From: Eledone cirrhosa
Lineage: Eukaryota
Length of the DNA stretch: 64,000 nt
Assembly: GCA_964016885.1 (NCBI GenBank)
Contig: OZ024741.1
Span: 195,672,001-195,736,000 of the forward strand
Reading direction: 5' to 3'
Shown piece after piece: positions 33,916 to 63,813 of the stretch (positions within the stretch are counted from its first letter, which is position 1; every line of letters starts with the position of its first letter). A model generated the notes under the pieces. The model saw only the letters and a list, made by a program, of their open reading frames with translations. It had not been told where the DNA came from and did no database searches. Made by a program: the position numbers and the translations under genes.

Positions 33916-34064
33916 ATTATTAACACATTACAATTAATTTACTAACTAGATTTATATTATCGCTAAAATATTTTATAATTATTTTGTTGGTTATGATATA
34001 GAAAGTTTGGTCAGAGGTTTAGTTGAGAGTTAACATATGTATGAGTTGTCCTTCAATAAAACAT

Positions 34065-34180
34065 CTGACCAAATGTTTAGCTAGAAGTAAACTGCTCTAC
34101 TTAGCATTTGTTAACATGGGGAAGACCTTTGACAAACACCCATTTTCTGTAATCTGAGGATCAGTAAGGAAACTAGACAC
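34065..34180 (+). mobile_element. Small RTE RT relic just upstream of the satellite
   Basis: KLLYLAFVNMGKTFD...SVI*GSVRKL compared with KPLYLAFVDLEKAFDRVPRSVIWWSLRKL in the 6.9-kb copy. Confidence 0.6.
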
Positions 34181-34239
34181 TATGAGAACAATATTTTACT
34201 CTGACTAATGGATGACAAAATATTAGCTATGATATCTGA

Positions 34240-37200
34240 ACAGATATTATGACATTAGTCATCATATTAACTATCATTTCTTCACATATATGACACTAGT
34301 CATCATATTAACTATCATATCTTCACAGATATGACATTAGTCATCATATTAACTATCATTTTTTCACAGATATGACACTAGTCATCATATTAACTATCAT
34401 TTCTTCACAGATATAACACTAGTCATCATATTAACTATCATATCTTCACAGATATGACACTAGTCATCATATTAACTATCATTTCTTCATGGATATGACA
34501 TTAGTCATCATATTAACTCTCATATCTTCACAGATATGACACTAGTCATCATATAAACTATCATTTCTCCACAGATATGACATTAGTCATCATATTAGCT
34601 ATCATATCTTACAGATATGACACTAGTCATCATATTAATTATCATATCTTCACAGATATGACATTAGTCATCATATAAACTATCATATCTTCACAGATAT
34701 GACACTAGTCATCATATTAACTATCATTTCTTCACATATATGACATTAGTCATCATATTAACTATCGTATCTCACAGATATGACATTAGTCATCATATTA
34801 ACTATCATACCTTCACAGATATGACATTAGTAATCATATTAACTATCATTTCTTCACAGATATGACACTAGTCATCATATTAACTAACATTTCTTCACAG
34901 ATATGACGCTAGTCATCATATTAACTATCATATTCACAGATATGACACTAGTCATCATATTAACTATAATTTCTTCATAGATATGACATTAGTCATCATA
35001 TTAACTATCATACCTTCACAGATATGACATTAGTCATCATATTAACTATCATTTCTTCACAGATATGACATTAGTCATCATATTAACTATCATATCTTCA
35101 CAGATATGACATTAGTCATCATATAAACTATCATATCTTCACAGATATGATACTAGTCATCATATTAACTAACATTTCTTCACAGATATGACATTAGTCA
35201 TCATATTAACTATCATACCTTCACAGATATGACATTAGTCATCATATTAACTATCATTTCTTCACAGATATGACACTAGTTATCATATTAACTATCATAT
35301 TCACAGATATGACACTAGTCATCATATTAACTATCATTTCTTCATGGATATGACATTAGTCATCATATTAACTCTCATATCTTCACAGATATGACATTAG
35401 TCATCACTTAAACTATCATTTCTCCACAGATATGACATTAGTCATCATATTAGCTATCATTTCTTCACAGATATGACATGAGTCATCATATTAACTATCA
35501 TACCTTCACAGATGTGACATTAGTCATCATATTAACTATCATTTCTTCACAGATATGAGATTAGTCATCATCTTAACTATCATTTCTTCACATATATGAC
35601 ATGAGTCATCATATTAACTATCATATTCACAGATATGACACTAGTCATCATATTAACTATCATATTCACAGATATGACACTAGTCATCATATTAACTATC
35701 ATTTCTTCATGGATATGACATTAGTCATCATATTAACTATCATATCTTCACAGATATGACATTAGTCATCACTTAAACTATCATTTCTCCACAGATATGA
35801 CATTAGTCATCATATTAGCTATCATTTCTTCACAGATATGACATTAGTCATCATATTAACTATCATATCTTACAGATATGACACTAGTCATCATATTAAT
35901 TATCATATCTTTACATATATGATACTAGTCATCATATTAACTATCATTTCTTCACAGATATGACATTAGTCATCATATTAACTATCATATCTTCACAGAT
36001 ATTATGACATTAGTCATCATATTAACTATCATATTCACAGATATGACACTAGTCATCATATTAACTATCATTTCTTCACAGATATGACATTAGTCATCAT
36101 ATTAACTATCATTTCTTCACAGATATGACATTAGTCATCATATTAACTATCATATCTTCACAGATATGACATTAGTCATCATATTAACTATCATTTCTTC
36201 ATAGATATGACATTAGTCATCATATTAACTATCATACCTTCACAGATATGACATTAGTAATCATATTAACTATCATATCTTCACAGATATGACACTAGTC
36301 ATCATATTAACCATCATATCTTTACAGATATGACATTAGCCATCATATTAACTATCATATCTTTACAGATATGACATTAATCATCATATAAACTATCATA
36401 TCTTCACAGATATGACATTAGTCATAATATTAACTATCATTTCTTCACATATATGATACTAGTCATCATATTAACTATCATTTCTTCACAGAAATGACAC
36501 TAGTGATCATTTTAACTATCATTTCTCCACAGATATGACATTAGTCATCATATTAACTATCATTTCTTCACAGATATGACACTAGTCATCATATTAACTA
36601 TCATTTCTTCCTGGATATGACACTAGTCATATTAACTATCATATCCTCACAGATATGATATTAGTCATCATATAAACTATCATATCCTCACAGATATGAC
36701 ATTAGTCATCATATAAACTATCATATCTTCACAGATATGACATGAGTCATCATATTAACTATCATTTCTTCATAGATATGACATTAGTCATCATATTAAC
36801 TATCATATCTTCACAGATATGACACTTGTCATCATATTAACTATCACTTCTTCATGGATATGACATTAGTCATCATATTAACTATCATTTCTTCACAGAT
36901 ATGACACTAGTCATCATATTAACTATCATTTCTTCACAGATATGACATTAGTCATCATATTAACTATCGTTTCTTCACAGATATGACATTAGTCATCATA
37001 TTAACTATCATTTCTTCATAGATATGACATTAGTCATCATATTAACTATCATACCTTCACAGATATGACATTAGTCATCATATTAACTATCATATCTTCA
37101 CACATATGTCATTAGTCATCATATAAACTATCATATCTTCACAGATATGACACTAGTCATCATATTAACTATCATTTCTTCACATATATGACATTAGTCA

Positions 37201-40200
37201 TCATATTAACTATCATATTCAGAGATATGACACTAGTCATCATATTAACTATCATATTCACAGATATGACACTAGTCATCATATTAACTATCATTTCTTC
37301 ATGGATATGACATTAGTCATCATATTAACTATCATATCTTCACAGATATGACATTAGTCATCACTTAAACTATCATTTCTCCACAGATATGACATTATCA
37401 TCATATTAGCTATCATTTCTTCACAGATATGACATGAGTCATCATATTAACTATCATACCTTCACAGATGTGACATTAGTCATCATATTAACTATTATTT
37501 CTTCACAGATATGAGATTAGTCATCATCTTAACTATCATTTCTTCACATATATGACATGAGTCATCATATTAACTATCATTTCTTCATAGATATGACATT
37601 AGTCATCATATTAACTATCATATCTTACAGATATGACATTAGTCATCATATTAATTATCATATCTTTACATATATGATACTAGCGATCATATTAACTATC
37701 ATTTCTTCACAGATATGACATTAGTCATCATATTAACTATCATATCTTCACAGATATTATGACATTAGTCATCATATTAACTATCATATTCACAGATATG
37801 ACACTAGTCATCATATTAACTATCATTTCTTCACAGATATGACATTAGTCATCATATTAACTATCATTTCTTCACAGATATGACATTAGTCATCATATTA
37901 ACTATGATATCTTCACAGATATGACATTAGTCATCATATTAACTATCATTTCTTCATAGATATGACATTAGTCATCATAATAACTATCATACATTCACAG
38001 ATATGACATTAGTAATCATATTAACTATCATATCTTCACAGATATGACACTAGTCATCATATTAACCATCATATCTTCACAGATATGACATTAGTCATCA
38101 TATTAACTATCATTTCTTCACAGATATGACACTAGTCATCATATTAACTATCATTTCTTCATGGATATGACACTAGTTATATTAACTATCATATCCTCAC
38201 AGATATGATATTAGTCATCATATAAACTATCATATCCTCACAGATATGACATTAGTCATCATATAAACTATCATATCTTCACAGATATGACATGAGTCTT
38301 CATATTAACTATCATTTCTTCATAGATATGACATTAGTCATCATATTAACTATCATATCTTCACAGATATGACACTTATCATCATATTAACTATCACTTC
38401 TTCATGGATATGACATTAGTCATCATATTAACTATCATTTCTTCACAGATATGACATTAGTCATCATATTAACTATCATTTCTTCACAGATATGACATTA
38501 GTCATCATATTAACTATCATTTCTTCACAGATATGACACTAGTCATCATATTAACTATCATTTCTTCACAGATATGACATTAGTCATCATATTAACTATC
38601 ATATCTTCACAGATATGACATTAGTCATCATATAAACTATCATATCTTCACAGATATGACACTAGTCATCATATTAATAACATTTCATCACAGATATGAC
38701 ATTAGTCATCATATTAACTATCATATTCACATATATGACACTAGTCATCATATTAACTATCATATTCACAGATATGACACTAGTCATCATATTAACTATC
38801 ATTTCTTCATGGATATGACATTAGTCATCATATTAACTATCATATCTTCACAGATATGACATTAGTCATCACGTAAACTATCATTTCTCCACAGATATGA
38901 CATTAGTCATCATATTAGCTATCATTTCTTCACAGATATGGCATGAGTCATCATATTAACTATCATACCTTCACAGATGTGACATTAGTCATCATATTAA
39001 CTATCATTTCTTCACAGATATGAGATTAGTCATCATCCTAACTATCATTTCTTCACATATATGACATGAGTCATCATATTAACTATCATATTCACAGATA
39101 TGACACTAGTCATCATATTAACTATCATTTCTTCACAGATATGACATTAGTCATCATATTAACTATCATTTCTTCACAGATATGACATTAGTCATCATAT
39201 TAACTATCATATCTTCACAGATATGACATTAGTCATCATATTAACTATCATTTCTTCAGAGATATGACATTAGTCATCATAATAACTATCATACATTCAC
39301 AGATATGACATTAGTAATCATATTAACTATCATATCTTCACAGATATGACACTAGTCATCATATTAACCATCATATCTTCACAGATATGACATTAGTCAT
39401 CATATTAACTATCATTTCTTCACAGATATGACACTAGTCATCATATTAACTATCATTTCTTCATGGATATGACACTAGTTATATTAACTATCATATCCTC
39501 ACAGATATGATATTAGTCATCATATAAACTATCATATCCTCACAGGTATGACATTAGTCATCATATAAACTATCATATCTTCACAGATATGACATGAGTC
39601 ATCATATTAACTATCATTTCTTCATAGATATGACATTAGTCATCATATTAACTATCATATCTTAACAGATATGACACTTGTCATCATATTAACTATCACT
39701 TCTTCATGGATATGACATTAGTCATCATATTAACTATCATTTCTTCACAGATATGACATTAGTCATCATATTAACTATCATTTCTTCACAGATATGACAT
39801 TAGTCATCATATTAACTATCATTTCTTCACAGATATGACACTAGTCATCATATTAACTATCATTTCTTCACATATATGACATTAGTCATCATATTAACTA
39901 TCGTATCTCACAGATATGACATCAGTCATCATATTAACTATCATACCTTCACAGATATGACATTAGTAATCATATTAACTATCATTTCTTCACAGATATG
40001 ACACTAATCATCATATTAACTAACATTTCTTCACAGATATGATGCTAGTCATCATATTAACTATCATATTCACAGATATGACACTAGTCATCATATTAAC
40101 TATCATTTCTTCATAGATATGACATTAGTCATCATATTAACTATCATACCTTCACAGATATGACATTAGGCTTCATATTAACTATCATTTCTTCACAGAT

Positions 40201-43200
40201 ATGACATTAGTCATCATATTAACTATCATATCTTCACAGATATGACATTAGTCATCATATAAACTATCATATCTTCACAGATATGACACTAGTCATCATA
40301 TTAACTAACATTTCATCACAGATATGACATTAGTCATCATATTAACTATCATATTCACAGATATGACACTAGTCATCATATTAACTATCATTTCTTCATG
40401 GATATGACATTAGTCATCATATTAACTATCATATCTTCACAGATATGTCATTAGTCATCACTTAAACTATCATTTCTCCACAGATATGACATTAGTCATC
40501 ATATTAGCTATCATTTCTTCACAGATATGACATGAGTCATCATATTAACTATCATACCTTCACAGATGTGACATTAGTCATCATATTAACTATCATTTCT
40601 TCACAGATATGAGATTAGTCATCATCCTAACTATCATTTCTTCACATATATGACATGAGTCATCATATTAACTATCATATTCACAGATATGACACTAGTC
40701 ATCATATTAACTATCATATTCACAGATATGACACTAGTCATCATATTAACTATCATTTCTTCATGGATATGACATTAGTCATCATATTAACTATCATATC
40801 TTCACAGATATGACATTAGTCATCACTTAAACTATCATTTCTTCACAGATATGACGACATTAGTCATCATATTAGCTATCATTTCTTCACATATATGACA
40901 TGAGTCATCATATTAACTATCATTTCTTCATAGATATGACATTAGTCATCATATTAACTATCATATCTTACAGATATGACACTAGTCATCATATTAATTA
41001 TCATATCTTTACATATATGATACCAGTGATCATATTAACTATCATTTCTTCACAGATATGACATTAGTCATCATATTAACTATCATATCTTCACAGATAT
41101 TATGACATTAGTCATCATATTAACTATCATATTCACAGATATGACACTAGTCATCATATTAACTATCATTTCTTCATAGATATGACATTAGTCATCATAA
41201 TAACTATCATACCTTCACAGATATGACATTAGTAATCATATTAACTATCATATCTTCACAGATATGATACTAGTCATCATATTAACCATCATGTCTTCAC
41301 AGATATGACATTAGTCATCATATTAACTATCATTTCTTCACAGATATGACACTAGTCATCATATTAACTATCATTTCTTCATGGATATGACACTAGTCAT
41401 ATTAACTATCATATCCTCACAGATATGATATTAGTCATCATATAAACTATCATATCCTCACAGATATGACAATCGTCATCATATAAACTATCATATCTTC
41501 ACAGATATGACATGAGTCATCATATTAACTATCATTTCTTCATAGATATGACATTAGTCATCATATTAACTATCATATCTTCACAGATATGACACTTGTC
41601 ATCATATTAACTATCACTTCTTCATGGATATGACATTAGTCATCATATTGACTATCATTTCTTCACAGATATGACACTAGTCATCATATTAACTATCATT
41701 TCTTCACAGATATGACATTAGTCATCATATTAACTATCATTTCTTCACAGATATGACATTAGTCATCATATTAACTATCATTTCTTCATAGATATGACAT
41801 TAGTCATCATATTAACTATCATACCTTCACAGATATGACATTAGTCATCATATTAACTATCATATCTTCACACATATGTCATTAGTCATCATATAAACTA
41901 TCATATCTTCACAGATATGACACTAGTCATCATATTAACTATCATTTCTTCACATATATGACATTAGTCATCATATTAACTATCGTATCTCACAGATATG
42001 ACATTAGTCATCATATTAACTATCATACCTTCACAGATATGACATTAGTAATCATATTAACTATCATTTCTTCATAGATATGACACTAGTCATCATATTA
42101 ACTAACATTTCTTCACAGATATGACGCTAGTCATCATATTAACTATCATATTCACAGATATGACACTAGTCATCATATTAACTATCATTTTTTCATAGAT
42201 ATGACATTAGTCATCATATTAACTATCATACCTTCACAGATATGACATTAGTCATCATATTAACTATCATTTCTTCACAGATATGACATTAGTCATCATA
42301 TTAACTATCATATCTTCACAGATATGACATTAGTCATCATATAAACTATCATATCTTCACAGATATGACACTAGTCATCATATTAACTAACATTTCTTCA
42401 CAGATATGACATTAGTCATCATATTAATTATCATATTCACAGATATGACACTAGTCATCATATTAACTATCATTTCTTCATGGATATGACATTAGTCATC
42501 ATATTAACTATCATATCTTCACAGATATGACATTAGTCATCACTTAAACTATCATTTCTCCACAGATATGACATTAGTCATCATATTAGCTATCATTTCT
42601 TCACAGATATGACATGAGTCATCATATTAACTATCATACCTTCACAGATGTGACATTAGTCATCATATTAACTATCATTTCGTCACAGATATGAGATTAG
42701 TCATCATCTTAACTATCATTTCTTCACATATATGACATGAGTCATCATATTAACTATCAAATCTTTCAGATATGACACTAGTCATCATATTAATTATCAT
42801 ATCTTTACATATATGATACTAGTGATCATATTGACTATCATTTATTCACAGATATGACATTAGTCATCATATTAACTATCATATCTTCACAGATATTATG
42901 ACATTAGTCATCATATTAACTATCATATTCACAGATATGACACTAGTCATCATATTAACTATCATTTCTTCACAGATATGACATTAGTCATCATATTAAC
43001 TATCATTTCTTCACAGATATGACATTAGTCATCATATTAACTATCATATCTTCACAGATATGACATTAGTCATCATATTAACTATCATTTCTTCATAGAT
43101 ATGACATTAGTCATCATATTAACTATCATACCTTCACAGATATAACATTAGTAATCATATTAACTATCATATCTTCACAGATATGACACTAGTCATCATA

Positions 43201-46200
43201 TTAACCATCATATCTTCACAGATATGACATTAGTCATCATATTAACTATCATATCTTCACATATATGACATGAGTCATCATATTAACTATCATATTCACA
43301 GATATGACACTAGTCATCATATTAACTATCATATTCACAGATATGACACTAGTCATCATATTAACTATCATTTCTTCATGGATATGACATTAGTCATCAT
43401 ATTAACTATCATATCTTCACAGATATGACATTAGTCATCACTTAAACTATCATTTCTTCACAGATATGACATTGGTCATCATATTAGCTATCATTTCTTC
43501 ACATATATGACATGAGTCATCATATTAACTATCATTTCTTCATAGATATGACATTAGTCATCATATTAACTATCATATCTTACAGATATGACACTAGTCA
43601 TCATATTAATTATCATATCTTTACATATATGATACTAGTGATCATATTAACTATCATTTCTTCACAGATATGACATTAGTCATCATATTAACTATCATAT
43701 CTTCACAGATATTATGACATTAGTCATCATATTAACTATCATATTCACAGATATGACACTAGTCATCATATTAACTATCATTTCTTCACAGATATGACAT
43801 TAGTCATCATATTAACTATCATTTCTTCACAGATATGACGTTAGTCATCATATTAACTATCATATCTTCACAGATATGACATTAGTCATCATATTAACTA
43901 TCATTTCTTCATAGATATGACATTAGTCATCATAATAACTATCATACCTTCACAGATATGACATAAGTAATCATATTAACTATCATATCTTCACAGATAT
44001 GACACTAGTCATCATATTAACCATCATGTCTTCACAGATATGACATTAGTCATCATATTAACTATCATTTCTTCACAGATATGACACTAGTCATCATATT
44101 AACTATCATTTCTTCATGGATATGACACTAGTCATATTAACTATCATATCCTCACAGATATGATATTAGTCATCATATAAACTATCATATCCTCACAGAT
44201 ATGACAATCGTCATCATATAAACTATCATATCTTCACAGATATGACATGAGTCATCATATTAACTATCATTTCTTCATAGATATGACATTAGTCATCATA
44301 TTAACTATCATATCTTCACAGATATGACACTTGTCATCATATTAACTATCACTTCTTCATGGATATGACATTAGTCATCATATTGACTATCATTTCTTTA
44401 CAGATATGACACTAGTCATCATATTAACTATCATTTCTTCACAGATATGACATTAGTCATCATATTAACTATCATTTCTTCACAGATATGACATTAGTCA
44501 TCATATTAACTATCATTTCTTCATAGATATGACATTAGTCATCATATTAACTATCATACCTTCACAGATATGACATTAGTCATCATATTAACTATCATAT
44601 CTTCACAGATATGACACTAGTCATCATATTAACTATCATTTCTTCACATATATGACATTAGTCATCATATTAACTATCGTATCTCACAGATATGACATTA
44701 GTCATCATATTAACTATCATACCTTCACAGATATGACATTAGTAATCATATTAACTATCATTTTTTCATAGATATGACACTAGTCATCATATTAACTAAC
44801 ATTTCTTCACAGATATGACGCTAGTCATCATATTAACTATCATATTCACAGATATGACACTAGTCATCATATTAACTCTCATTTCTTCATAGATATGACA
44901 TTAGTCATCATATTAACTATCATACCTTCACAGATATGACATTAGTCATCATATTAACTATCATATCTTCACAGATATGACATTAATCATCATATAAACT
45001 ATCATATCTTCACAGATATGACACTAGTCATCATATTAACTAACATTTCTTCACAGATATGACATTAGTCATCATATTAATTATCATATTCACTGATATG
45101 ACACTAGTCATCATATTAACTATCATATTCACAGATATGACACTAGTCATCATATTAACTATCATTTCTTCATGGATATGACATTAGTCATCATATTAAC
45201 TATCATATCTTCACAGATATGACATTAGTCATCACTTAAACTATCATTTCTCCACAGATATGACATTAGTCATCATATTAGCTATCATTTCTTCACAGAT
45301 ATGACATGAGTCATCATATTAACTATCATACCTTCACAGATGTGACATTAGTCATCATATTAACTATCATTTCGTCACAGATATGAGATTAGTCATCATC
45401 TTAACTATCATTTCTTCACATATATGACATGAGTCATCATATTAACTATCAAATCTTACAGATATGACACTAGTCATCATATTAATTATCATATCTTTAC
45501 ATATATGATACTAGTGATCATATTAACTATCATTTATTCACAGATATGACATTAGTCATCATATTAACTATCATATCTTCACAGATATTATGACATTAGT
45601 CATCATATTAACTATCATATTCACAGATATGACACTAGTCATCATATTAACTATCATTTCTTCACAGATATGACATTAGTCATCATATTAACTATCATTT
45701 CTTCATAGATATGACATTAGTCATCATATTAACTATCATTTCTTCATAGATATGACATTAGTCATCATATTAACTATCATACCTTCACAGATATAACATT
45801 AGTAATCATATTAACTATCATATCTTCACAGATATGACACTAGTCATCATATTAACCATCATATCTTCACAGATATGACATTAGTCATCATATTAACTAT
45901 CATATCTTCACAGATATGACATTAGTCATCATATTAACTATCATTTCTTCACAGATATGACATTAGTCATCATATTAACTATCATTTCTTCACATATATG
46001 ACACTAGTCATCATATTAACTATCATTTCATCACAGAAATGACACTAGTCATCATATTAACTATCATTTCTTCACAGATATGACACTAGTCATCATATTA
46101 ACTATCATTTCTTCATGGATATGACACTAGTCATATTAACTATCATATCCTCACCGATATGACATTAGTCATCATATAAACTATCATATCTTCACAGATA

Positions 46201-49200
46201 TGACATGAGTCATCATATTAACTATCATTTCTTCATAGATATGACATTAGTCATCATATTAACTATCATTTCTTCACAGATATGACACTAGTCATCATAT
46301 TAACTATCATTTCTTCACAGATATGACATTAGTCATCATATTAACTATCATTTCTTCACAGATATGACATTAGTCATCATATTAACTATCATTTCTTCAT
46401 AGATATGACATTAGTCTTCCTATTAACTATCATATCTTACAGATATGAAACTAGTCATCATATTAATTATCATATCTTTACATATATGATACTAGTCATC
46501 ATATTAACTATCATTTCTTCACAGATATGACATTAGTCATCATATTAACTATCATATCTTCACAGATATTATGACATTAGTCATCATATTAACTATCATA
46601 TTCACAGATATGACACTAGTCATCATATTAACTATCATTTCTTCACAGATATGACATTAGTCATCATATTAACTATCATTTCTTCACAGATATGACATTA
46701 GTCATCATATTAACTATCATATCTTCACAGATATGACATTAGTCATCATATTAACTATCATTTCTTCATAGATATGACATTAGTCATCATATTAACTATC
46801 ATACCTTCACAGATATGACATTAGTAATCATATTAACTATCATGTCTTCACAGATATGACACAAGTCATCATATTAACCATATATATCTTCACAGATATG
46901 ACATTAGTCATCATATTAACTATCATATCTTCACAGATATGACATTAGTCATCATATTAACTATCATATCTTCACAGATATGACATTAGTAATCATATTA
47001 ACTATCATGTCTTCACAGATATGACACAAGTCATCATATTAACCATATATATCTTCACAGATATGACATTAGTCATCATATTAACTATCATATCTTCACA
47101 GATATGACATTAGTCATCATATTAACTATCATATCTTCACAGATATGACATTAATCATCATATAAACTATCATATCTTCACAGATATGACATTAGTCATA
47201 ATATTAGCTATCATTTCTTCACAGATATGACATTAGTCATCATATTAACTATCATTTCTTCACAGATATGACACTAGTCATCATATTAACTATCATTTCT
47301 TCATGGATATGACACTAGTCATATTAACTATCATATCCTCACAGATATGATATTAGTCATCATATAAACTATCATATCCTCACAGATATGACATTAGTCA
47401 TCATATAAACTATCATATCTTCACAGATATGACATGAGTCATCATATTAACTGTCATATCTTCACAGATATGACACTTGTCATCATATTAACTATCACTT
47501 CTTCATGGATATGACATTAGTCATCATATTAACTATCATTTCTTCACAGATATGACACTAGTCATCATATTAACTATCATTTCTTCACAGATATGACATT
47601 AGTCATCATATTAACTATCATTTCTTCACAGATATGACATTAGTCATCATATTAACTATCATTTCTTCATAGATATGACATTAGTCATCATATTAACTAT
47701 CATATCTTCACACATATGACATTAGTCATCATATAAACTATCATATCTTCACAGATATGGCACTAGTCATCATATTAACTATCATTTCTTCACAGATATG
47801 ACACTAGTCATCATATTAACTATCATATTTACAGATATAACCCATGTCATCATATTAACTATAATTTCTTCATGGATATGACATTAGTCATCATATTAAC
47901 TACCATTTCCTCACAGATATTATGACATTAGTCATCATATAAACTATCATATCTTCACAGATATGACATTAGTCATCATATTAACTATCATTTCTTCACA
48001 GATATGACAGTAGTCATCATATAAACTATCATATCTTCACAGATATGACACTAGTCATCATATTAACTATCATATCTTCACACCTATGACATTAGTCATC
48101 ATATAAATTATCATATCTTCACAGATATGACATTAGTCATCATATTAACTATCATTTCTTCACAGATATGACATTAGTCATCATATTAACTATCATATTC
48201 ACAGATATGACACTAGTCATCATATTAACTATCATATTCACAGATATGACACTAGTCATCATATTAACTATCATTTCTTCATGGATATGACATTAGTCAT
48301 GATATTAACTATCATATCTTCACAGATATGACATTAGTCATCACTTAAACTATCATTTCTCCACAGATATGACATTAGTCATCATATTAGCTATCATTTC
48401 TTCACAGATATGACATGAGTCATCATATTAACTATCATATCTTCACATATATGACATTAGTCATCATATTAACTATCGTATCTCACAGATATGACATCAG
48501 TCATCATATTAACTATCATACCTTCACAGATATGACATTAGTAATCATATTAACTATCATTTCTTCACAGATATGACACTAATCATCATATTAACTAACA
48601 TTTCTTCACAGATATGATGCTAGTCATCATATTAACTATCATATTCACAGATATGACACTAGTCATCATATTAACTATCATTTCTTCATAGATATGACAT
48701 TAGTCATCATATTAACTATCATACCTTCACAGATATGACATTAGGCTTCATATTAACTATCATTTCTTCACAGATATGACATTAGTCATCATATTAACTA
48801 TCATATCTTCACAGATATGACATTAGTCATCATATAAACTATCATATCTTCACAGATATGACACTAGTCATCATATTAACTAACATTTCATCACAGATAT
48901 GACATTAGTCATCATATTAACTATCATATTCACAGATATGACACTAGTCATCATATTAACTATCATTTCTTCATGGATATGACATTAGTCATCATATTAA
49001 CTATCATATCTTCACAGATATGTCATTAGTCATCACTTAAACTATCATTTCTCCACAGATATGACATTAGTCATCATATTAGCTATCATTTCTTCACAGA
49101 TATGACATGAGTCATCATATTAACTATCATACCTTCACAGATGTGACATTAGTCATCATATTAACTATCATTTCTTCACAGATATGAGATTAGTCATCAT

Positions 49201-52200
49201 CCTAACTATCATTTCTTCACATATATGACATGAGTCATCATATTAACTATCATATTCACAGATATGACACTAGTCATCATATTAACTATCATATTCACAG
49301 ATATGACACTAGTCATCATATTAACTATCATTTCTTCATGGATATGACATTAGTCATCATATTAACTATCATATCTTCACAGATATGACATTAGTCATCA
49401 CTTAAACTATCATTTCTTCACAGATATGACGACATTAGTCATCATATTAGCTATCATTTCTTCACATATATGACATGAGTCATCATATTAACTATCATTT
49501 CTTCATAGATATGACATTAGTCATCATATTAACTATCATATCTTACAGATATGACACTAGTCATCATATTAATTATCATATCTTTACATATATGATACCA
49601 GTGATCATATTAACTATCATTTCTTCACAGATATGACATTAGTCATCATATTAACTATCATATCTTCACAGATATTATGACATTAGTCATCATATTAACT
49701 ATCATATTCACAGATATGACACTAGTCATCATATTAACTATCATTTCTTCATAGATATGACATTAGTCATCATAATAACTATCATACCTTCACAGATATG
49801 ACATTAGTAATCATATTAACTATCATATCTTCACAGATATGATACTAGTCATCATATTAACCATCATGTCTTCACAGATATGACATTAGTCATCATATTA
49901 ACTATCATTTCTTCACAGATATGACACTAGTCATCATATTAACTATCATTTCTTCATGGATATGACACTAGTCATATTAACTATCATATCCTCACAGATA
50001 TGATATTAGTCATCATATAAACTATCATATCCTCACAGATATGACAATCGTCATCATATAAACTATCATATCTTCACAGATATGACATGAGTCATCATAT
50101 TAACTATCATTTCTTCATAGATATGACATTAGTCATCATATTAACTATCATATCTTCACAGATATGACACTTGTCATCATATTAACTATCACTTCTTCAT
50201 GGATATGACATTAGTCATCATATTGACTATCATTTCTTCACAGATATGACACTAGTCATCATATTAACTATCATTTCTTCACAGATATGACATTAGTCAT
50301 CATATTAACTATCATTTCTTCACAGATATGACATTAGTCATCATATTAACTATCATTTCTTCATAGATATGACATTAGTCATCATATTAACTATCATACC
50401 TTCACAGATATGACATTAGTCATCATATTAACTATCATATCTTCACACATATGTCATTAGTCATCATATAAACTATCATATCTTCACAGATATGACACTA
50501 GTCATCATATTAACTATCATTTCTTCACATATATGACATTAGTCATCATATTAACTATCGTATCTCACAGATATGACATTAGTCATCATATTAACTATCA
50601 TACCTTCACAGATATGACATTAGTAATCATATTAACTATCATTTCTTCATAGATATGACACTAGTCATCATATTAACTAACATTTCTTCACAGATATGAC
50701 GCTAGTCATCATATTAACTATCATATTCACAGATATGACACTAGTCATCATATTAACTATCATTTTTTCATAGATATGACATTAGTCATCATATTAACTA
50801 TCATACCTTCACAGATATGACATTAGTCATCATATTAACTATCATTTCTTCACAGATATGACATTAGTCATCATATTAACTATCATATCTTCACAGATAT
50901 GACATTAGTCATCATATAAACTATCATATCTTCACAGATATGACACTAGTCATCATATTAACTAACATTTCTTCACAGATATGACATTAGTCATCATATT
51001 AATTATCATATTCACAGATATGACACTAGTCATCATATTAACTATCATTTCTTCATGGATATGACATTAGTCATCATATTAACTATCATATCTTCACAGA
51101 TATGACATTAGTCATCACTTAAACTATCATTTCTCCACAGATATGACATTAGTCATCATATTAGCTATCATTTCTTCACAGATATGACATGAGTCATCAT
51201 ATTAACTATCATACCTTCACAGATGTGACATTAGTCATCATATTAACTATCATTTCGTCACAGATATGAGATTAGTCATCATCTTAACTATCATTTCTTC
51301 ACATATATGACATGAGTCATCATATTAACTATCAAATCTTTCAGATATGACACTAGTCATCATATTAATTATCATATCTTTACATATATGATACTAGTGA
51401 TCATATTGACTATCATTTATTCACAGATATGACATTAGTCATCATATTAACTATCATATCTTCACAGATATTATGACATTAGTCATCATATTAACTATCA
51501 TATTCACAGATATGACACTAGTCATCATATTAACTATCATTTCTTCACAGATATGACATTAGTCATCATATTAACTATCATTTCTTCACAGATATGACAT
51601 TAGTCATCATATTAACTATCATATCTTCACAGATATGACATTAGTCATCATATTAACTATCATTTCTTCATAGATATGACATTAGTCATCATATTAACTA
51701 TCATACCTTCACAGATATAACATTAGTAATCATATTAACTATCATATCTTCACAGATATGACACTAGTCATCATATTAACCATCATATCTTCACAGATAT
51801 GACATTAGTCATCATATTAACTATCATATCTTCACATATATGACATGAGTCATCATATTAACTATCATATTCACAGATATGACACTAGTCATCATATTAA
51901 CTATCATATTCACAGATATGACACTAGTCATCATATTAACTATCATTTCTTCATGGATATGACATTAGTCATCATATTAACTATCATATCTTCACAGATA
52001 TGACATTAGTCATCACTTAAACTATCATTTCTTCACAGATATGACATTGGTCATCATATTAGCTATCATTTCTTCACATATATGACATGAGTCATCATAT
52101 TAACTATCATTTCTTCATAGATATGACATTAGTCATCATATTAACTATCATATCTTACAGATATGACACTAGTCATCATATTAATTATCATATCTTTACA

Positions 52201-55200
52201 TATATGATACTAGTGATCATATTAACTATCATTTCTTCACAGATATGACATTAGTCATCATATTAACTATCATATCTTCACAGATATTATGACATTAGTC
52301 ATCATATTAACTATCATATTCACAGATATGACACTAGTCATCATATTAACTATCATTTCTTCACAGATATGACATTAGTCATCATATTAACTATCATTTC
52401 TTCACAGATATGACGTTAGTCATCATATTAACTATCATATCTTCACAGATATGACATTAGTCATCATATTAACTATCATTTCTTCATAGATATGACATTA
52501 GTCATCATAATAACTATCATACCTTCACAGATATGACATAAGTAATCATATTAACTATCATATCTTCACAGATATGACACTAGTCATCATATTAACCATC
52601 ATGTCTTCACAGATATGACATTAGTCATCATATTAACTATCATTTCTTCACAGATATGACACTAGTCATCATATTAACTATCATTTCTTCATGGATATGA
52701 CACTAGTCATATTAACTATCATATCCTCACAGATATGATATTAGTCATCATATAAACTATCATATCCTCACAGATATGACAATCGTCATCATATAAACTA
52801 TCATATCTTCACAGATATGACATGAGTCATCATATTAACTATCATTTCTTCATAGATATGACATTAGTCATCATATTAACTATCATATCTTCACAGATAT
52901 GACACTTGTCATCATATTAACTATCACTTCTTCATGGATATGACATTAGTCATCATATTGACTATCATTTCTTTACAGATATGACACTAGTCATCATATT
53001 AACTATCATTTCTTCACAGATATGACATTAGTCATCATATTAACTATCATTTCTTCACAGATATGACATTAGTCATCATATTAACTATCATTTCTTCATA
53101 GATATGACATTAGTCATCATATTAACTATCATACCTTCACAGATATGACATTAGTCATCATATTAACTATCATATCTTCACAGATATGACACTAGTCATC
53201 ATATTAACTATCATTTCTTCACATATATGACATTAGTCATCATATTAACTATCGTATCTCACAGATATGACATTAGTCATCATATTAACTATCATACCTT
53301 CACAGATATGACATTAGTAATCATATTAACTATCATTTTTTCATAGATATGACACTAGTCATCATATTAACTAACATTTCTTCACAGATATGACGCTAGT
53401 CATCATATTAACTATCATATTCACAGATATGACACTAGTCATCATATTAACTCTCATTTCTTCATAGATATGACATTAGTCATCATATTAACTATCATAC
53501 CTTCACAGATATGACATTAGTCATCATATTAACTATCATATCTTCACAGATATGACATTAATCATCATATAAACTATCATATCTTCACAGATATGACACT
53601 AGTCATCATATTAACTAACATTTCTTCACAGATATGACATTAGTCATCATATTAATTATCATATTCACTGATATGACACTAGTCATCATATTAACTATCA
53701 TATTCACAGATATGACACTAGTCATCATATTAACTATCATTTCTTCATGGATATGACATTAGTCATCATATTAACTATCATATCTTCACAGATATGACAT
53801 TAGTCATCACTTAAACTATCATTTCTCCACAGATATGACATTAGTCATCATATTAGCTATCATTTCTTCACAGATATGACATGAGTCATCATATTAACTA
53901 TCATACCTTCACAGATGTGACATTAGTCATCATATTAACTATCATTTCGTCACAGATATGAGATTAGTCATCATCTTAACTATCATTTCTTCACATATAT
54001 GACATGAGTCATCATATTAACTATCAAATCTTACAGATATGACACTAGTCATCATATTAATTATCATATCTTTACATATATGATACTAGTGATCATATTA
54101 ACTATCATTTATTCACAGATATGACATTAGTCATCATATTAACTATCATATCTTCACAGATATTATGACATTAGTCATCATATTAACTATCATATTCACA
54201 GATATGACACTAGTCATCATATTAACTATCATTTCTTCACAGATATGACATTAGTCATCATATTAACTATCATTTCTTCATAGATATGACATTAGTCATC
54301 ATATTAACTATCATTTCTTCATAGATATGACATTAGTCATCATATTAACTATCATACCTTCACAGATATAACATTAGTAATCATATTAACTATCATATCT
54401 TCACAGATATGACACTAGTCATCATATTAACCATCATATCTTCACAGATATGACATTAGTCATCATATTAACTATCATATCTTCACAGATATGACATTAG
54501 TCATCATATTAACTATCATTTCTTCACAGATATGACATTAGTCATCATATTAACTATCATTTCTTCACATATATGACACTAGTCATCATATTAACTATCA
54601 TTTCATCACAGAAATGACACTAGTCATCATATTAACTATCATTTCTTCACAGATATGACACTAGTCATCATATTAACTATCATTTCTTCATGGATATGAC
54701 ACTAGTCATATTAACTATCATATCCTCACCGATATGACATTAGTCATCATATAAACTATCATATCTTCACAGATATGACATGAGTCATCATATTAACTAT
54801 CATTTCTTCATAGATATGACATTAGTCATCATATTAACTATCATTTCTTCACAGATATGACACTAGTCATCATATTAACTATCATTTCTTCACAGATATG
54901 ACATTAGTCATCATATTAACTATCATTTCTTCACAGATATGACATTAGTCATCATATTAACTATCATTTCTTCATAGATATGACATTAGTCTTCCTATTA
55001 ACTATCATATCTTACAGATATGAAACTAGTCATCATATTAATTATCATATCTTTACATATATGATACTAGTCATCATATTAACTATCATTTCTTCACAGA
55101 TATGACATTAGTCATCATATTAACTATCATATCTTCACAGATATTATGACATTAGTCATCATATTAACTATCATATTCACAGATATGACACTAGTCATCA

Positions 55201-58200
55201 TATTAACTATCATTTCTTCACAGATATGACATTAGTCATCATATTAACTATCATTTCTTCACAGATATGACATTAGTCATCATATTAACTATCATATCTT
55301 CACAGATATGACATTAGTCATCATATTAACTATCATTTCTTCATAGATATGACATTAGTCATCATATTAACTATCATACCTTCACAGATATGACATTAGT
55401 AATCATATTAACTATCATGTCTTCACAGATATGACACAAGTCATCATATTAACCATATATATCTTCACAGATATGACATTAGTCATCATATTAACTATCA
55501 TATCTTCACAGATATGACATTAGTCATCATATTAACTATCATATCTTCACAGATATGACATTAGTAATCATATTAACTATCATGTCTTCACAGATATGAC
55601 ACAAGTCATCATATTAACCATATATATCTTCACAGATATGACATTAGTCATCATATTAACTATCATATCTTCACAGATATGACATTAGTCATCATATTAA
55701 CTATCATATCTTCACAGATATGACATTAATCATCATATAAACTATCATATCTTCACAGATATGACATTAGTCATAATATTAGCTATCATTTCTTCACAGA
55801 TATGACATTAGTCATCATATTAACTATCATTTCTTCACAGATATGACACTAGTCATCATATTAACTATCATTTCTTCATGGATATGACACTAGTCATATT
55901 AACTATCATATCCTCACAGATATGATATTAGTCATCATATAAACTATCATATCCTCACAGATATGACATTAGTCATCATATAAACTATCATATCTTCACA
56001 GATATGACATGAGTCATCATATTAACTGTCATATCTTCACAGATATGACACTTGTCATCATATTAACTATCACTTCTTCATGGATATGACATTAGTCATC
56101 ATATTAACTATCATTTCTTCACAGATATGACACTAGTCATCATATTAACTATCATTTCTTCACAGATATGACATTAGTCATCATATTAACTATCATTTCT
56201 TCACAGATATGACATTAGTCATCATATTAACTATCATTTCTTCATAGATATGACATTAGTCATCATATTAACTATCATATCTTCACACATATGACATTAG
56301 TCATCATATAAACTATCATATCTTCACAGATATGGCACTAGTCATCATATTAACTATCATTTCTTCACAGATATGACACTAGTCATCATATTAACTATCA
56401 TATTTACAGATATAACCCATGTCATCATATTAACTATAATTTCTTCATGGATATGACATTAGTCATCATATTAACTACCATTTCCTCACAGATATTATGA
56501 CATTAGTCATCATATAAACTATCATATCTTCACAGATATGACATTAGTCATCATATTAACTATCATTTCTTCACAGATATGACAGTAGTCATCATATAAA
56601 CTATCATATCTTCACAGATATGACACTAGTCATCATATTAACTATCATATCTTCACACCTATGACATTAGTCATCATATAAATTATCATATCTTCACAGA
56701 TATGACATTAGTCATCATATTAACTATCATTTCTTCACAGATATGACATTAGTCATCATATTAACTATCATATTCACAGATATGACACTAGTCATCATAT
56801 TAACTATCATATTCACAGATATGACACTAGTCATCATATTAACTATCATTTCTTCATGGATATGACATTAGTCATGATATTAACTATCATATCTTCACAG
56901 ATATGACATTAGTCATCACTTAAACTATCATTTCTCCACAGATATGACATTAGTCATCATATTAGCTATCATTTCTTCACAGATATGACATGAGTCATCA
57001 TATTAACTATCATACCTTCACAGATGTGACATTAGTCATCATATTAACTATCATTTCTTCACAGATATGAGATTAGTCATCATCTTAACTATCATTTCTT
57101 CACATATATGACATGAGTCATCATATTAACTATCAAATCTTACAGATATGACACTAGTCATCATATTAATTATCATATCTTTACATATATGATACTAGTG
57201 ATCATATTAACTATCATTTATTCACAGATATGACATTAGTCATCATATTATCTATCATATCTTCACAGATATTATGACATTAGTCATCATATTAACTATC
57301 ATATTCACAGATATGACACTAGTCATCATATTAACTATCATTTATTCACAGATATGACATTAGTCATCATATTAACTATCATTTCTTCACAGATATGACA
57401 TTAGTCATCATATTAACTATCATATCTTCACAGATATGATATTAGTCATCATATTAACTATCATTTCTTCATAGATATGACATTAGTCATCATATTAACT
57501 ATCATACCTTCACAGATATAACATTAGTAATCATATTAACTATCATATCTTCACAGATATGACACTAGTCATCATATTAACCATCATATCTTCACAGATG
57601 ACATTAGTCATCATATTAACTATCATATCTTCACAGATATGACATTAGTCATCATATTAGCTATCATTTCTTCACAGATATGACATTAGTCATCATATTA
57701 ACTATCATTTCTTCACAGATATGACATTAGTCATCATATTAACTATCATATCTTCACAGATATGACATTAGTCATCATATAAACTATCATATCTTCACAG
57801 ATATGACACTAGTCATCATATTAACTAACATTTCTTCACAGATATGACATTAGTCATCATATTAACTATCATATTCACAGATATGACACTAGTCATCATA
57901 TTAACTATCATATTCACAGATATGACACTAGTCATCATATTAACAATCATTTCTTCATGGATATGACATTAGTCATCATATTAACTATCATATCTTCACA
58001 GATATGACATTAGTCATCACTTAAACTATCATTTCTCCACAGATATGACATTAGTCATCATATTAGCTATCATTTCTTCACAGATATGACATGAGTCATC
58101 ATATTAACTATCATACCTTCACAGATGTGACATTAGTCATCATATTAACTATCATTTCTTCACAGATATGAGATTAGTCATCATCTTAACTATCATTTCT

Positions 58201-61200
58201 TCACATATATGACATGAGTCATCATATTAACTATCAAATCTTACAGATATGACACTAGTCATCATATTAATTATCATATCTTTACATATATGATACTAGT
58301 GATCATATTAACTATCATTTATTCACAGATATGACATTAGTCATCATATTAACTATCATATCTTCACAGATATTATGACATTAGTCATCATATTAACTAT
58401 CATATTCACAGATATGACACTAGTCATCATATTAACTATCATTTCTTCACAGATATGACATTAGTCATCATATTAACTATCATTTCTTCACAGATATGAC
58501 ATTAGTCATCATATTAACTATCATATCTTCACAGATATGACATTAGTCATAATATTAACTATCATTTCTTCATAGATATGACATTAGTCATCATATTAAC
58601 TATCATACCTTCACAGATATAACATTAGTAATCATATTAACTATCATATCTTCACAGATATGACACTAGTCATCATATTAACCATCATATCTTCACAGAT
58701 ATGACATTAGTCATCATATTAACTATCATATCTTCACAGATATGACATTAGTCATCATATTAGCTATCATTTCTTCACAGATATGACATTAGTCATCATA
58801 TTAACTATCATTTCTTCACATATATGACACTAGTCATCATATTAACTATCATTCCTTCACAGAAATGACACTAGTCATCATTTTAACTATCATTTCTCCA
58901 CAGATATGACATTAGTCATCATATTAACTATCATTTCTTCACAGATATGACACTAGTCATCATATTAACTATCATTTCTTCAAAGATATGACATTAGTCA
59001 TCATATTAACTATCATTTCTTCACAGATATGACATTAGTCTTCATATTAACTATCATATCTTACAGATATGACACTAGTCATCATATTAATTATCATATC
59101 TTTACATATATGATGCTAGTCATCATATTAACTATCATTTCTTCACAGATATGACATTAGTCATCATATTAACTATCATATCTTCACAGATATTATGACA
59201 TTAGTCATCATATTAACTATCATATTCACAGATATGACACTAGTCATCATATTAACTATCATATTCACAGATATGACACTAGTCATCATATTAACTATCA
59301 TTTCTTCACAGATATGACATTAGTCATCATATTAACTATCATTTCTTCACAGATATGACATTAGTCATCATATTAACTATCATATCTTCACAGATATGAC
59401 ATTAATCATCATATTAACTATCATTTCTTCATATATATGACATTAGTCATCATATTAACTATCATACCTTCACAGATATGACATTAGTAATCATATTAAC
59501 TATCATATCTTCACAGATATGACACTAGTCATCATATTAACCATCATATCTTCACAGATATGACATTAGTCATCATATTAACTATCATATCTTCAAAGAT
59601 ATGACATTAGTCATCATATTAACTATCATATCTTTACAGATATGACATTGATCATCATATAAACTATCATATCTTCACAGATATGACATTAGTCATAATA
59701 TTCGCTATCATTTCTTCACAGATATGACATTAGTCCTCATATTAACTATCATTTCTTCACATATATGACACTAGTCATCATATTAACTATCATTTCTTAA
59801 CAGAAATGACACTAGTCATCATTTTAACTATCATTTCTCCACAGATATGACATTAGTCATCATATTAACTATCATTTCTTCACAGATATGACACTAGTCA
59901 TCATATTAACTATCATTTCTTCATGGATATGACACTAGTCATATTAACTATCATATCCTCACCGATATGACATTAGTCATCATATAAACTATCATATCTT
60001 CACAGATATGACATGAGTCATCATATTAACTATCATTTCTTCATAGATATGACATTAGTCATCATATTAACTATCATTTCTTCACAGATATGACACTAGT
60101 CATCATATTAACTATCATTTCTTCACAGATATGACATTAGTCATCATATTAACTATCATTTCTTCACAGATATGACATTAGTCATCATATTAACTATCAT
60201 TTCTTCATAGATATGACATTAGTCTTCCTATTAACTATCATATCTTACAGATATGAAACTAGTCATCATATTAATTATCATATCTTTACATATATGATAC
60301 TAGTCATCATATTAACTATCATTTCTTCACAGATATGACATTAGTCATCATATTAACTATCATATCTTCACAGATATTATGACATTAGTCATCATATTAA
60401 CTATCATATTCACAGATATGACACTAGTCATCATATTAACTATCATTTCTTCACAGATATGACATTAGTCATCATATTAACTATCATTTCTTCACAGATA
60501 TGACATTAGTCATCATATTAACTATCATATCTTCACAGATATGACATTAGTCATCATATTAACTATCATTTCTTCATAGATATGACATTAGTCATCATAT
60601 TAACTATCATACCTTCACAGATATGACATTAGTAATCATATTAACTATCATGTCTTCACAGATATGACACAAGTCATCATATTAACCATATATATCTTCA
60701 CAGATATGACATTAGTCATCATATTAACTATCATATCTTCACAGATATGACATTAGTCATCATATTAACTATCATATCTTCACAGATATGACATTAATCA
60801 TCATATAAACTATCATATCTTCACAGATATGACATTAGTCATAATATTAGCTATCATTTCTTCACAGATATGACATTAGTCATCATATTAACTATCATTT
60901 CTTCACAGATATGACACTAGTCATCATATTAACTATCATTTCTTCATGGATATGACACTAGTCATATTAACTATCATATCCTCACAGATATGATATTAGT
61001 CATCATATAAACTATCATATCCTCACAGATATGACATTAGTCATCATATAAACTATCATATCTTCACAGATATGACATGAGTCATCATATTAACTATCAT
61101 TTCTTCATAGATATGACATTAGTCATCATATTAACTGTCATATCTTCACAGATATGACACTTGTCATCATATTAACTATCACTTCTTCATGGATATGACA

Positions 61201-62610
61201 TTAGTCATCATATTAACTATCATTTCTTCACAGATATGACACTAGTCATCATATTAACTATCATTTCTTCACAGATATGACATTAGTCATCATATTAACT
61301 ATCATTTCTTCACAGATATGACATTAGTCATCATATTAACTATCATTTCTTCATAGATATGACATTAGTCATCATATTAACTATCATATCTTCACACATA
61401 TGACATTAGTCATCATATAAACTATCATATCTTCACAGATATGGCACTAGTCATCATATTAACTATCATTTCTTCACAGATATGACACTAGTCATCATAT
61501 TAACTATCATATTTACAGATATAACCCATGTCATCATATTAACTATAATTTCTTCATGGATATGACATTAGTCATCATATTAACTACCATTTCCTCACAG
61601 ATATTATGACATTAGTCATCATATAAACTATCATATCTTCACAGATATGACATTAGTCATCATATTAACTATCATTTCTTCACAGATATGACATTAGTCA
61701 TCATATAAACTATCATATCTTCACAGATATGACACTAGTCATCATATTAACTATCATATCTTCACACCTATGACATTAGTCATCATATAAATTATCATAT
61801 CTTCACAGATATGACATTAGTCATCATATTAACTATCATTTCTTCACAGATATGACATTAGTCATCATATAAACTATCATATCTTCACAGATATGACACT
61901 AGTCATCATATTAACTATCATTTCTTCACAGATATGACATTAGTCATCATATAAACTATCATATCTTCACAGATATGACATTAGTCATCATATTAAGCAT
62001 CATATCTTCACAGATATTACATTAGTCATCATATAAACTATCATATCTTCACAGATATGACATTAGTCATCATATTAACTATCATACCTTCACAGATATG
62101 ACATTAATCATCATATTAACTATCATTTCTTCACAGATATGACATTAGTCATCATATTAACTATCATTTCTTCATAGATATGACATTAGTCATCATATTA
62201 ACTATCATATCTTCACAGATATGATATTAGTCATCATATTAACTATCATATCTTCACAGATATTATGACATTAATCATCATGTAAACTATCATTTCTTCA
62301 CAGATATGACATTAGTCATCATATTAACTATCATTTCTTCATAGATATGACATTAGTCATCATATTAACTATCATATCTTCACAGATATTATGACATTAG
62401 TCATCATATTAACTATAATATCTTCACAGATATTATGACATTCGTCATCATATTAACTATCATATCTTCACAGATATTATGACATTAGTCATCATATTAA
62501 CTATAATATCTTCACAGATATTATGACATTAGTCATCATATTAACTATCATATCTTCACTGATATTATGACATTAGTCATATTAACTATCATTTCTTCAC
62601 AGATATTGTA
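34240..62610 (+). repeat. ~28.4-kb tandem satellite with a 41-bp consensus unit (~690 copies), intronic in galectin
   Basis: Consensus ATATGACA(T/C)TAGTCATCATATTAACTATCAT(T/A)TCTTCACAG; period 41 (e.g. 34329 to 34370), with 38-, 39-, 40- and 44-bp variants. Copy number estimated as length/41. Confidence 0.98.
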
Positions 62611-63813
62611 TTAGTAATCTTTTTAATTGATTTGTGTTTTATAGCAAGCCTCATTACAAACCAAGATATTATATGTCACCCATTTCTAGTTTCTCTATGG
62701 TCTGGTAAATAGAGTAACATTGGTCTGAAGCTGAATACTTGACTGGCTTCCAGTCATCATTCCAGGGAGGTGGGTGTGTTGTATATATTTGAGTATGTGG
62801 GTGGAAGTGGGGGTAAGCAAACTCAAGGGCTGCTCTAGGTGGTACACTCTCTAGCTATGTTACTATTTCTAGATTAGAAATGTTGTGTAATAACCCATTC
62901 ATTAACTCCTAAAATTCTGTACGACACAAAACCACATAAGTAAGACATTCTTAAAAATTAAAGTCTTTAGTTTACTACAAATTTTCACAACAATCTGTCC
63001 ACTTGCAAAGTTACCATAAACATTTGAATTGACAAAGCCATTTCTTTCAGATATTTCCTGTTAAATCATTGCAGTGTTAAATTAAGTGTTAATCATATAT
63101 TACTCCTACTCCTTATGCTGATCAGCTCTACCTGCCTTCTACGGTACTGATTTAAAAGCAGCACAAATTAAGTTTGTTTATGATGGACACACACAGTGAA
63201 AGCAATAATATATGAACAGTTGATCATATAACTGGTAGTTGTATATTTTATTGACATGACTTGCTGCTGGAGTTCATGATTTCTTGATTATCTCAGTTCA
63301 ACTATTCGACAAAGGGGTTTCACTTATACTCCCATGTTGAGTAACTTTTCTTGGGAAGTATGTTCTGTCTAAATAATTATTCTAATAACTCAGGCATATA
63401 ATTAGTTTTACAGAATCATCCAATTTATTCATTCTAATAGTGAAAATTAAATCTAAACTGTTTTTTTTTTGTTCGTCTAAAAAGGCTCTGACTGTTTCCT
63501 TTTCATTCTAGTCATCGTGGATACCTCTTGTGTCCTAGGTCCCCCAACTGCTATTTTCCTCTGCAATATCTTGAATAGTGCATCCACCTGAGGAAGGAAC
63601 CCTGTGAGGTGGAGTGGCTGATGCAATAGATGTGGCTGGCTGTTCTTCATGGCTTTTGCTATTTTGTCTGCAGGACACAGCTATTTTTTTTTTTTCTTAA
63701 TATGCAAATGTTGATGAGTTGTGAATTTCTTTCTTTCATTTTAAAATAAAAATGAAGAGATTGGCCATCTTTAAAAATCAGGTTTGTCATAAATATTTAA
63801 ACTATCATTTTAG

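Follow-up and report, generated by a model that had tools for sequence, protein, structure and literature searches.

The window analysed here, a 64,000-bp stretch of the Eledone cirrhosa genome (G000:C2:195672001-195736000, in an assembly of 3.0 Gb), contains part of a galectin gene whose second intron is filled largely by a 41-bp minisatellite, the units of which lie in the sense orientation and end like a 3' splice site, in many cases one as strong as the gene's own. We conclude that the array is a single-locus minisatellite, that the splicing machinery likely passes over its acceptor-like units since nearly all of them lack a downstream donor with which to define an exon, and that the array as a whole is probably a passenger tolerated by the gene. 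In long introns such as this one the spliceosome would settle on an exon once the 3' and 5' sites at its two ends have been paired, and the orphan acceptors would then stay silent and exon 2 would join exon 3; the array itself may have grown by slippage and unequal exchange, with the acceptor-like tail presumably inherited from its seed sequence in the absence of selection.

Spliced alignment resolves the gene into eight coding exons from 24248 to ~87,220 (window numbering), which encode an intact protein of 317 amino acids. Exon 3 is 81% identical at the protein level to an Octopus sinensis 'galectin-9-like' protein (P0001), a relative carrying two PF00337 domains, and 78% identical to an O. 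bimaculoides protein (P0002). Because the sequence from 63814 onward matches PF00337 positions 29-87, intron 2 splits a single carbohydrate-recognition domain, as a preliminary description of this DNA had proposed. With the array subtracted, the intron measures 2,202 bp, and the same intron of a paralog on the same contig measures 2,141 bp; the array alone therefore explains the roughly 14-fold enlargement.

Splitting the array yielded 694 units belonging to 150 distinct variants and covering 28,359 bp, or 92.8% of intron 2, in agreement with the earlier estimate of ~690 sense copies occupying ~93% of a 30,561-bp intron. Its edges lie 996 bp from the donor and 1,207 bp from the acceptor. AG closes 586 of the 694 units and CAG 525, and the AG has been lost in the remaining 108. 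The further statement that most units end in ...TATTAACTATCATTTCTTCACAG/AT holds only in a relaxed form: the literal end is present in 118/694 units, whereas TTAAC combined with a terminal CAG is found in 412/694. Genome-wide pattern searches with 34 exact letters, with 20 exact letters and with 29 letters allowing three mismatches gave genome-to-window counts of 106/106, 403/403 and 561/561, with no match on the minus strand. Since the genome counts equal those of the window, the array is a single-locus minisatellite rather than part of a dispersed satellite family, and its head-to-tail units in the 10-100-bp range, its interspersed variants and its single locus are those of an intronic minisatellite.

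The array also contains an exact tandem duplication of 8,575 bp, which suggests length instability through a very recent event, or else an assembly artefact. We consider it quite improbable that the duplication is false and the true array only ~20 kb long. The 100% identity covers one period exactly and reaches no further in either direction, as an artefact might produce; however, the joint is a unique unit, a hybrid of two variants such as a crossover would leave. Furthermore, in the DNA runs X1-X3, which represent one sample, the variant-specific contig depth is 55 times (X1) and 52 times (X3) that of the flank, nearer to the 47 copies counted with the duplication than to the 31 without it, although this is a weak hint in favour of the longer array because contig depths are not copy numbers.

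Splice-site strength was graded on a scale trained on this genome's own myosin and galectin genes, for which protein-guided alignment gave 85 junctions; 11 were dropped for a margin under 10 or a non-GT donor, and 74 (70 acceptors and 73 donors) were kept. The authentic acceptor of exon 3 scores 7.2 bits in a leave-one-out evaluation and ranks 19th lowest of the 70 real acceptors. The AGs at the unit ends have a median of 7.3 bits, with 347/586 at or above the authentic value and nine reaching the median of real acceptors, and the impression, originally gained by eye, that the units are as good as the real site thus withstands trained-matrix scoring. Among tandemised random intronic 41-mers (up to 20,000 draws), 3.0% reach 7.2 bits and 1.2% reach 9.0 bits, the corresponding figures for shuffled units being 3.6% and 1.1%, and 7.2 bits is attained by 2/44 other arrays in gene regions on the gene strand and by 2/44 on the opposite strand. 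Given that the 694 copies amount to one event and that the genome holds many intronic arrays, such a look-alike is uncommon, not extraordinary. Nor is the acceptor-like AG conserved, and it bears no sign of selection on the decoy: in the 405 full-length units remaining when the duplication's second copy is omitted, the terminal C ranks 3rd, the A 8th and the G 5th in variability among the 41 positions, and when distinct variants are counted instead, C and G still rank in the top six for variability, with A outside the top 14. Masking of the decoy AGs by RNA structure was considered and rejected, as four units fold with z = -1.68 and an empty centroid, and the AG is predicted to be paired in real and decoy sites alike.

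The donor side of the array presents the opposite picture to its acceptor side. The sole GT of the unit scores -3.1 bits as a donor, and at a threshold set to the 10th percentile of real donors (4.6 bits) only 4 of the 764 GT/GC sites in the array qualify, versus ~173 expected. In 216 kb of ordinary introns, donors at this threshold occur once per 164 bp and acceptor-like sites of at least 7.2 bits once per 1,342 bp. When such AGs are paired with a threshold donor 30-300 nt downstream, 19/351 find a partner in intron 2 compared to 108/161 in ordinary introns; 30.6 kb of ordinary intron would be expected to hold 15 such pairs, and the pseudo-exon load of intron 2, at 19, is therefore ordinary. 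These counts support the first of the explanations offered in the preliminary description, namely that exon definition lets the spliceosome pass over decoys that lack donors. The exceptions are three weak donors, the variant CACAG/GTATGA at 39546 and the units at the end of the array, which have donors at 62705-62813; the strongest candidate poison exon, between the AG of the last unit and the donor at 62813, holds an in-frame stop. Joining exon 2 to a consensus unit would give RYDISHHINYHFFTDMTLVIILTIISSQI followed by a stop codon, exactly as had been claimed, and 23 of the 26 acceptor-donor combinations tested stop before the end of exon 3. A donor-less outcome is frequent by chance, being obtained with 82% of shuffled units and 58% of random 41-mers. 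Selection against donor-creating variants was discarded as a candidate explanation, as two of the three single-base substitutions able to create a donor do occur and no depletion is visible.

The abundance of strong sites raises the alternative that the array acts as a copy-number attenuator, in which longer arrays would divert transcripts into poison exons (a unit AG joined to the donor at 39546 or 62813) and nonsense-mediated decay (NMD) would lower galectin output. In keeping with this, there are 348 strong acceptor-like sites, most combinations with a donor terminate early as described above, the exact 8.6-kb duplication points to a recent change in length, and the human ABCA7 variable number tandem repeat (VNTR) shows length-dependent splicing (PMC5954066; this and the other papers cited are represented by the parts of their text available to us). 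However, pairable sites occur in ordinary number, irrespective of how many units there are, the transcript contig from run X4 described below fits the normal exon chain, and the AG belongs to the most weakly conserved positions of the unit, all of which make an attenuator very unlikely. We judge equally unlikely the related idea of a rheostat on an immune lectin, whereby orphan acceptors would now and then be joined to the exon-2 donor or to one of the donors at 39546 and 62813, and array length would set the extent of mRNA loss; if true, it would represent an acceptor-side counterpart of ABCA7, on a larger scale and in an invertebrate.

The single-copy variant at 39546 combines a pyrimidine tract, an AG and then directly a donor of 8.5 bits, the layout of a recursive splice site, and may be regarded as a candidate for one on its sequence. 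As a ratchet point it would allow the intron to be removed in two steps of 6.3 and 24.3 kb; each unit is one A-to-G change away from such a layout, and recursive splicing is known, though rare, for very long Drosophila introns (PMC3245539, in part). Against this stand the variant's single copy and its frequency, which is that of other rare A-to-G variants (1/405 units; such a variant is seen at 13 of 15 A positions), as well as the introns of 10-18 kb among our 74 junctions that do without such help, and we therefore hold recursive removal to be highly improbable.

A splicing-factor sponge or a transcription-delay element kept by selection is, in our view, the least probable of these functional readings. 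The array does lengthen the intron ~14-fold. At the textbook elongation rate, however, 28 kb corresponds to roughly 10 minutes of transcription, which counts against a delay; the paralog has no array in the same intron, and a few hundred sites of moderate strength at one locus count for little next to the decoys of the whole genome, which occur once per 1.3 kb of intron. Satellite-filled giant introns in Drosophila spermatocytes need a special expression programme, but these are megabase-sized, compared to 28 kb here (PMC6508621, in part). Altogether, the variable AG, the 108/694 units that lack it and the presence, on both strands genome-wide, of the matching motif of the likely parent, an element resembling a miniature inverted-repeat transposable element (MITE), leave the attenuator, the U2AF/SF1 sponge and the transcription delay, all suggested at the outset, unsupported.

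In line with skipping of the units, the transcript evidence fits normal splicing. Run X4 yields a contig of 1,706 nt (depth 73), which we infer to be a spliced transcript; within 32300-34290 only its positions 337-427 align, on 33164-33254 without other letters. The two contig letters beyond exon 2 are GT; exon 3 starts with GTT, the intron with GTA and the unit with ATA, and the contig, leaving exon 2 with GT, therefore does not enter a unit. Furthermore, the normal eight-exon chain places the end of the contig 464 nt into the 3' untranslated region, where a high-copy repeat starts at ~445-455 nt; the contig thus ends 10-20 nt inside the repeat, where assembly would break, and its length fits the normal mRNA, whereas one extra unit in the transcript would put the contig end in unique sequence. 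Runs X1-X3, by comparison, gave unbroken contigs through exon and intron over 32300-34290. X4 has no cover over a single unit at 34243-34290, an observation that was not used as evidence.

As for the origin of the unit, sequence resemblance tentatively favours as the seed a MITE-like element that is abundant and flanked by TTAA, more precisely its 5' end; unrelated AT-rich DNA would be a rather unlikely source, and an ancient duplicate of the acceptor of intron 2 itself an unlikely one. In a scan of 0.9 Mb, the highest-scoring window and several of the runners-up belonged to an element of ~200-230 bp with TTAA-flanked terminal inverted repeats, a putative piggyBac-type MITE. On a profile built from 22 copies of this element, the four most frequent variants of the unit outscored 400, 398, 400 and 399 of 400 dinucleotide shuffles, and the unit agrees with the closest copies in ~31 of 38 columns, as read by eye. 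At the position aligned to that of the unit the element has an acceptor-like site of 8.7 bits, and the end variants CACAG and CATGG are common to array and element, part of the 22 copies having been picked by the CACAG pattern. The element also seeds 60/72-bp arrays at other loci, one of which lies on the gene strand directly after a myosin exon-like donor. Within 288 kb of genes we found six credible copies, three sense and three antisense, and discarded two AT-rich matches, numbers too few for a strand bias. Occurrence in random orientation throughout the genome, which had been named as evidence against a function, does not apply to the satellite itself, confined as it is to one locus, but does apply to the MITE-like element that it resembles, exact 34-mer copies of which number 1097 on the plus and 987 on the minus strand. 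As a separate observation, the CACAG, CATGG and CACGG variants of the element (L100:3634-3851, L110:5510-5879, L147-L171) suggest CpG decay.

Descent from the intron's own 3' splice site would require that this site was duplicated, that insertions separated the copy from it by 1.2 kb and that amplification followed, a detached relative of the published intronic 'mirages', whose units repeat splice signals (PMC3087553, in part); the splicing outcome would be the same as in our preferred reading. Unit and acceptor share 22/28 aligned columns, and with all three unit variants tried the gene's own site came first of 70 real acceptors. The match tops all 490 decoy acceptors and is equalled by only 5/17,004 random intron windows and 26/20,000 shuffles. 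In addition, the spacer between array and exon contains ~400 bp of old dispersed-repeat fragments, and a true acceptor-seeded array is present in the myosin gene of the same genome. On the other hand, the 22/28 columns need three gaps in AT-rich sequence, and gentler scoring puts the real acceptor (17) below MITE-derived windows (up to 25), with ~325/49,735 windows reaching 17. Moreover, no exon-3 sequence follows the AG of the unit, the stretch past the array gives only short AT-rich matches, and the degenerate edge unit is no nearer the acceptor than shuffles are (742/3000). Like the resemblance to the MITE, the likeness to the acceptor was found after the fact, and on balance this origin appears unlikely. 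A segmental duplication of the intron's 3' end was rejected as well, the flanks being no more alike than shuffles (171 and 217 of 300 as good).

Returning to our preferred reading of a tolerated, donor-poor passenger array, several points weigh against it or limit its reach. The strength scores come from simple position weight matrices without branch-point or enhancer terms, and the array does hold its 348 sites of at least 7.2 bits where 21 would be expected, ~16 times the ordinary density. The lack of donors, common by chance, could also reflect selection. Run X4 was taken as RNA from its exon-shaped cover, the kind of run not being on record; its testimony is that of one contig from one run, in which place and length are seen rather than letters across the joint, and since contigs drop rare variants, mis-splicing at a low level or degraded by NMD would be invisible. 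With regard to the seed, the MITE match was found after the fact and carries no correction for the number of repeat families; in pairwise tests the commonest unit variant is equalled by 0-1/600 shuffles, with the second variant weaker (7-52/600). The flanks of the array match the MITE profile only weakly upstream (7 and 8 of 400 shuffles) and show no match downstream, and in another test 72 and 119 of 300 shuffles were as good.

Features of the galectin gene and of its second intron, in window coordinates; a slash marks a splice boundary.
Feature	Position	Strand	Remarks
First coding exon	24248..24295	+	MFQKPRCQESVVVNNP; phase-0 donor GTAAGT
Coding exon 2 of the two-domain galectin	33164..33252	+	Phase-2 donor AAG/GTAGGT, 10.5 bits
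Intron 2	33253..63813	+	30,561 bp; exons 2 and 3 join in frame
Very abundant dispersed repeat, three pieces	33300..33925		Presumably SINE-like (short interspersed nuclear element); summed contig depth very high over 33305-33974; many matches in other stretches
41-bp minisatellite	34248-62606	+	Tandem Repeats Finder (TRF): 694 copies, 90% matches; acceptor-like unit ends ...TCTTCACAG
Only strong donor in the array	39541..39551	+	Single-copy variant CACAG/GTATGA, 8.5 bits
Exact tandem duplication inside the array	39865..57014	+	8,575 bp, 210 units, 100% identical
Strongest candidate poison exon	62603..62812	+	AG of the last unit 9.0 bits; donor GGG/GTAAGC at 62813, 9.6 bits
Dispersed-repeat fragment in the array-acceptor spacer	62899..63103		74-86% to other copies
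Second dispersed-repeat fragment in the spacer	63488..63682		74-78%
Authentic 3' splice site	63783..63813	+	7.2 bits
Coding exon 3	63814..64000, on to 64021	+	Starts GT; core of the first galectin domain

The 5' part of the gene merits additional comment. The exon at 24248 is the best match to the N-terminal 16 amino acids of P0001, with a score of 43 versus 31 for the runner-up, and as the true first coding exon it displaced two other candidates, one an ATG exon near 32691, the other a micro-exon near 33083 whose donor is GG. In intron 1, a 163-nt X4 contig (depth 3.4) covers a T run and a micro-exon-like stretch at 32558-32720; the latter, near 32685-32709, consists of an acceptor, an ATG and a donor and lies outside the main coding chain. 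The intron end immediately 5' of exon 2 (33050-33163) is conserved with O. bimaculoides, where prediction P0002 reads the region as coding, likely a mis-prediction. Galectins bind sugar through a motif of the form H-x-N-x-R; the first domain here has HIDFR, with D at the usual N position, and P0001 of O. sinensis likewise has D (HIDLR), a change common to both. Finally, the galectin paralog at C2:393.4 Mb is followed, ~7 kb after its last exon, by a 30-bp array at least 2.5 kb in length (L017:7441-10000).

Tandem arrays are a common component of this genome. They make up 12.9% of 200 kb sampled as 20 arbitrarily placed 10-kb stretches, two of which are wholly array. Of these two, L125:1-10000 and L119:1-10000, one has a 16-bp unit with GTAAGT and 452 donor-like sites on one strand; the other has a 27-29-bp unit with CTAAC, ending TCTCTCGACAG. 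The introns of the myosin genes hold many arrays, and in a muscle myosin heavy-chain gene a 130-bp unit repeated 4.4 times (G000:C27:18037107-18037680, L087:7107-7680) forms a true acceptor mirage: four upstream copies reproduce the real acceptor together with the first 8 bases of the exon, three of them scoring 11.2 bits like the real site, and the exon's donor lies 209 nt downstream of the nearest decoy acceptor. This mirage shows that acceptor copies are tolerated in a gene that must work. In the same gene, a 192-bp duplication in two copies (L085:316-706, G000:C27) repeats the real donor boundary, a donor-side mirage. The gene (L079-L088, G000:C27:17950001-18050000) further has alternative head exons, different query proteins picking different exons at the same position, and these are probably mutually exclusive.

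Cryptic splice sites are described as greatly outnumbering real ones, with exon definition limiting pseudoexons in long introns (PMC3245539, in part), and splicing-associated tandem repeats have been catalogued in humans (PMC10078293, in part). We found no account of this octopus gene or array, nor of acceptor-side arrays so large, in a literature that was mostly of the non-subscription kind. The array is of interest as an unusually large natural set of apparently ignored pseudo splice sites: its 28 kb contain ~350 acceptors as strong as the gene's own, whereas the published cases compared here, as far as the excerpts go, mostly concern donors and range from 3 to ~430 units. Exon definition in a cephalopod could readily be tested on it, and a common MITE-like element with an acceptor-like site that seeds tandem repeats would be a cheap route to such arrays. 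By itself the array does not testify to a new mode of regulation; for that, use of its sites or an effect of its length would have to be demonstrated.

Among human cases, the 37-bp VNTR in intron 7 of F7 and the repeats of CBS, LMNB2 and PDGF contain repeated donors that are mostly silent (PMC1557585, in part). The galectin array shares with them tandem pseudo splice sites that are normally silent; however, in the accessible text of that paper those sites are on the donor side, are exact copies of the real site and number 5-20 units, whereas here they are on the acceptor side, inexact and in the hundreds. Closer in size is the 25-bp VNTR in intron 18 of human ABCA7, likewise large, intronic and endowed with a splice signal per unit, with up to ~427 units (PMC5954066). 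In the same partial account it starts at the donor and affects splicing in a length-dependent manner, in contrast to the galectin array, for which the one exon-covering contig fits normal splicing. The fertility genes of the Drosophila Y chromosome resemble it in that tandem repeat makes up most of an intron in an expressed gene, although, according to the available sections of PMC6508621, those introns are megabase-sized, consist of simple 5-bp repeats and rely on dedicated RNA-binding proteins, against 28 kb here.

Transposon-seeded minisatellites have been reviewed (PMC6947457, in part); DTC84 of a clam (PMC3879986, in part) is a case of this kind. Like these transposon- or MITE-derived repeats, the galectin unit resembles a segment of an abundant terminal-inverted-repeat element that seeds other arrays; it is, however, diverged, measures 41 bp as opposed to the 60/72-bp arrays of that element in this genome, and has no element ends that we could find around the array.

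The nearest relatives remain the mirages of amphioxus, described for Adh3 and the globins BflGb6 and BflGb9, whose units contain splice signals and, in the text accessible to us, are reported to leave regular splicing undisturbed (PMC3087553). As in those genes, we are dealing with an intronic minisatellite whose units carry splice signals, and mirages, too, are length-unstable by the same account. Mirage units, however, are described there as spanning the intron-exon boundary, abutting the exon and numbering 3-6 in BflGb6, whereas the galectin array is without exon sequence (the unit begins ATATGAC and exon 3 GTTCTCC), ends 1,207 bp short of the exon, matches the acceptor in 22/28 columns and runs to 694 units. 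The galectin array thus fails two defining features of a mirage and yet works like one: it is real, striking but explicable, a large new case of a known phenomenon.

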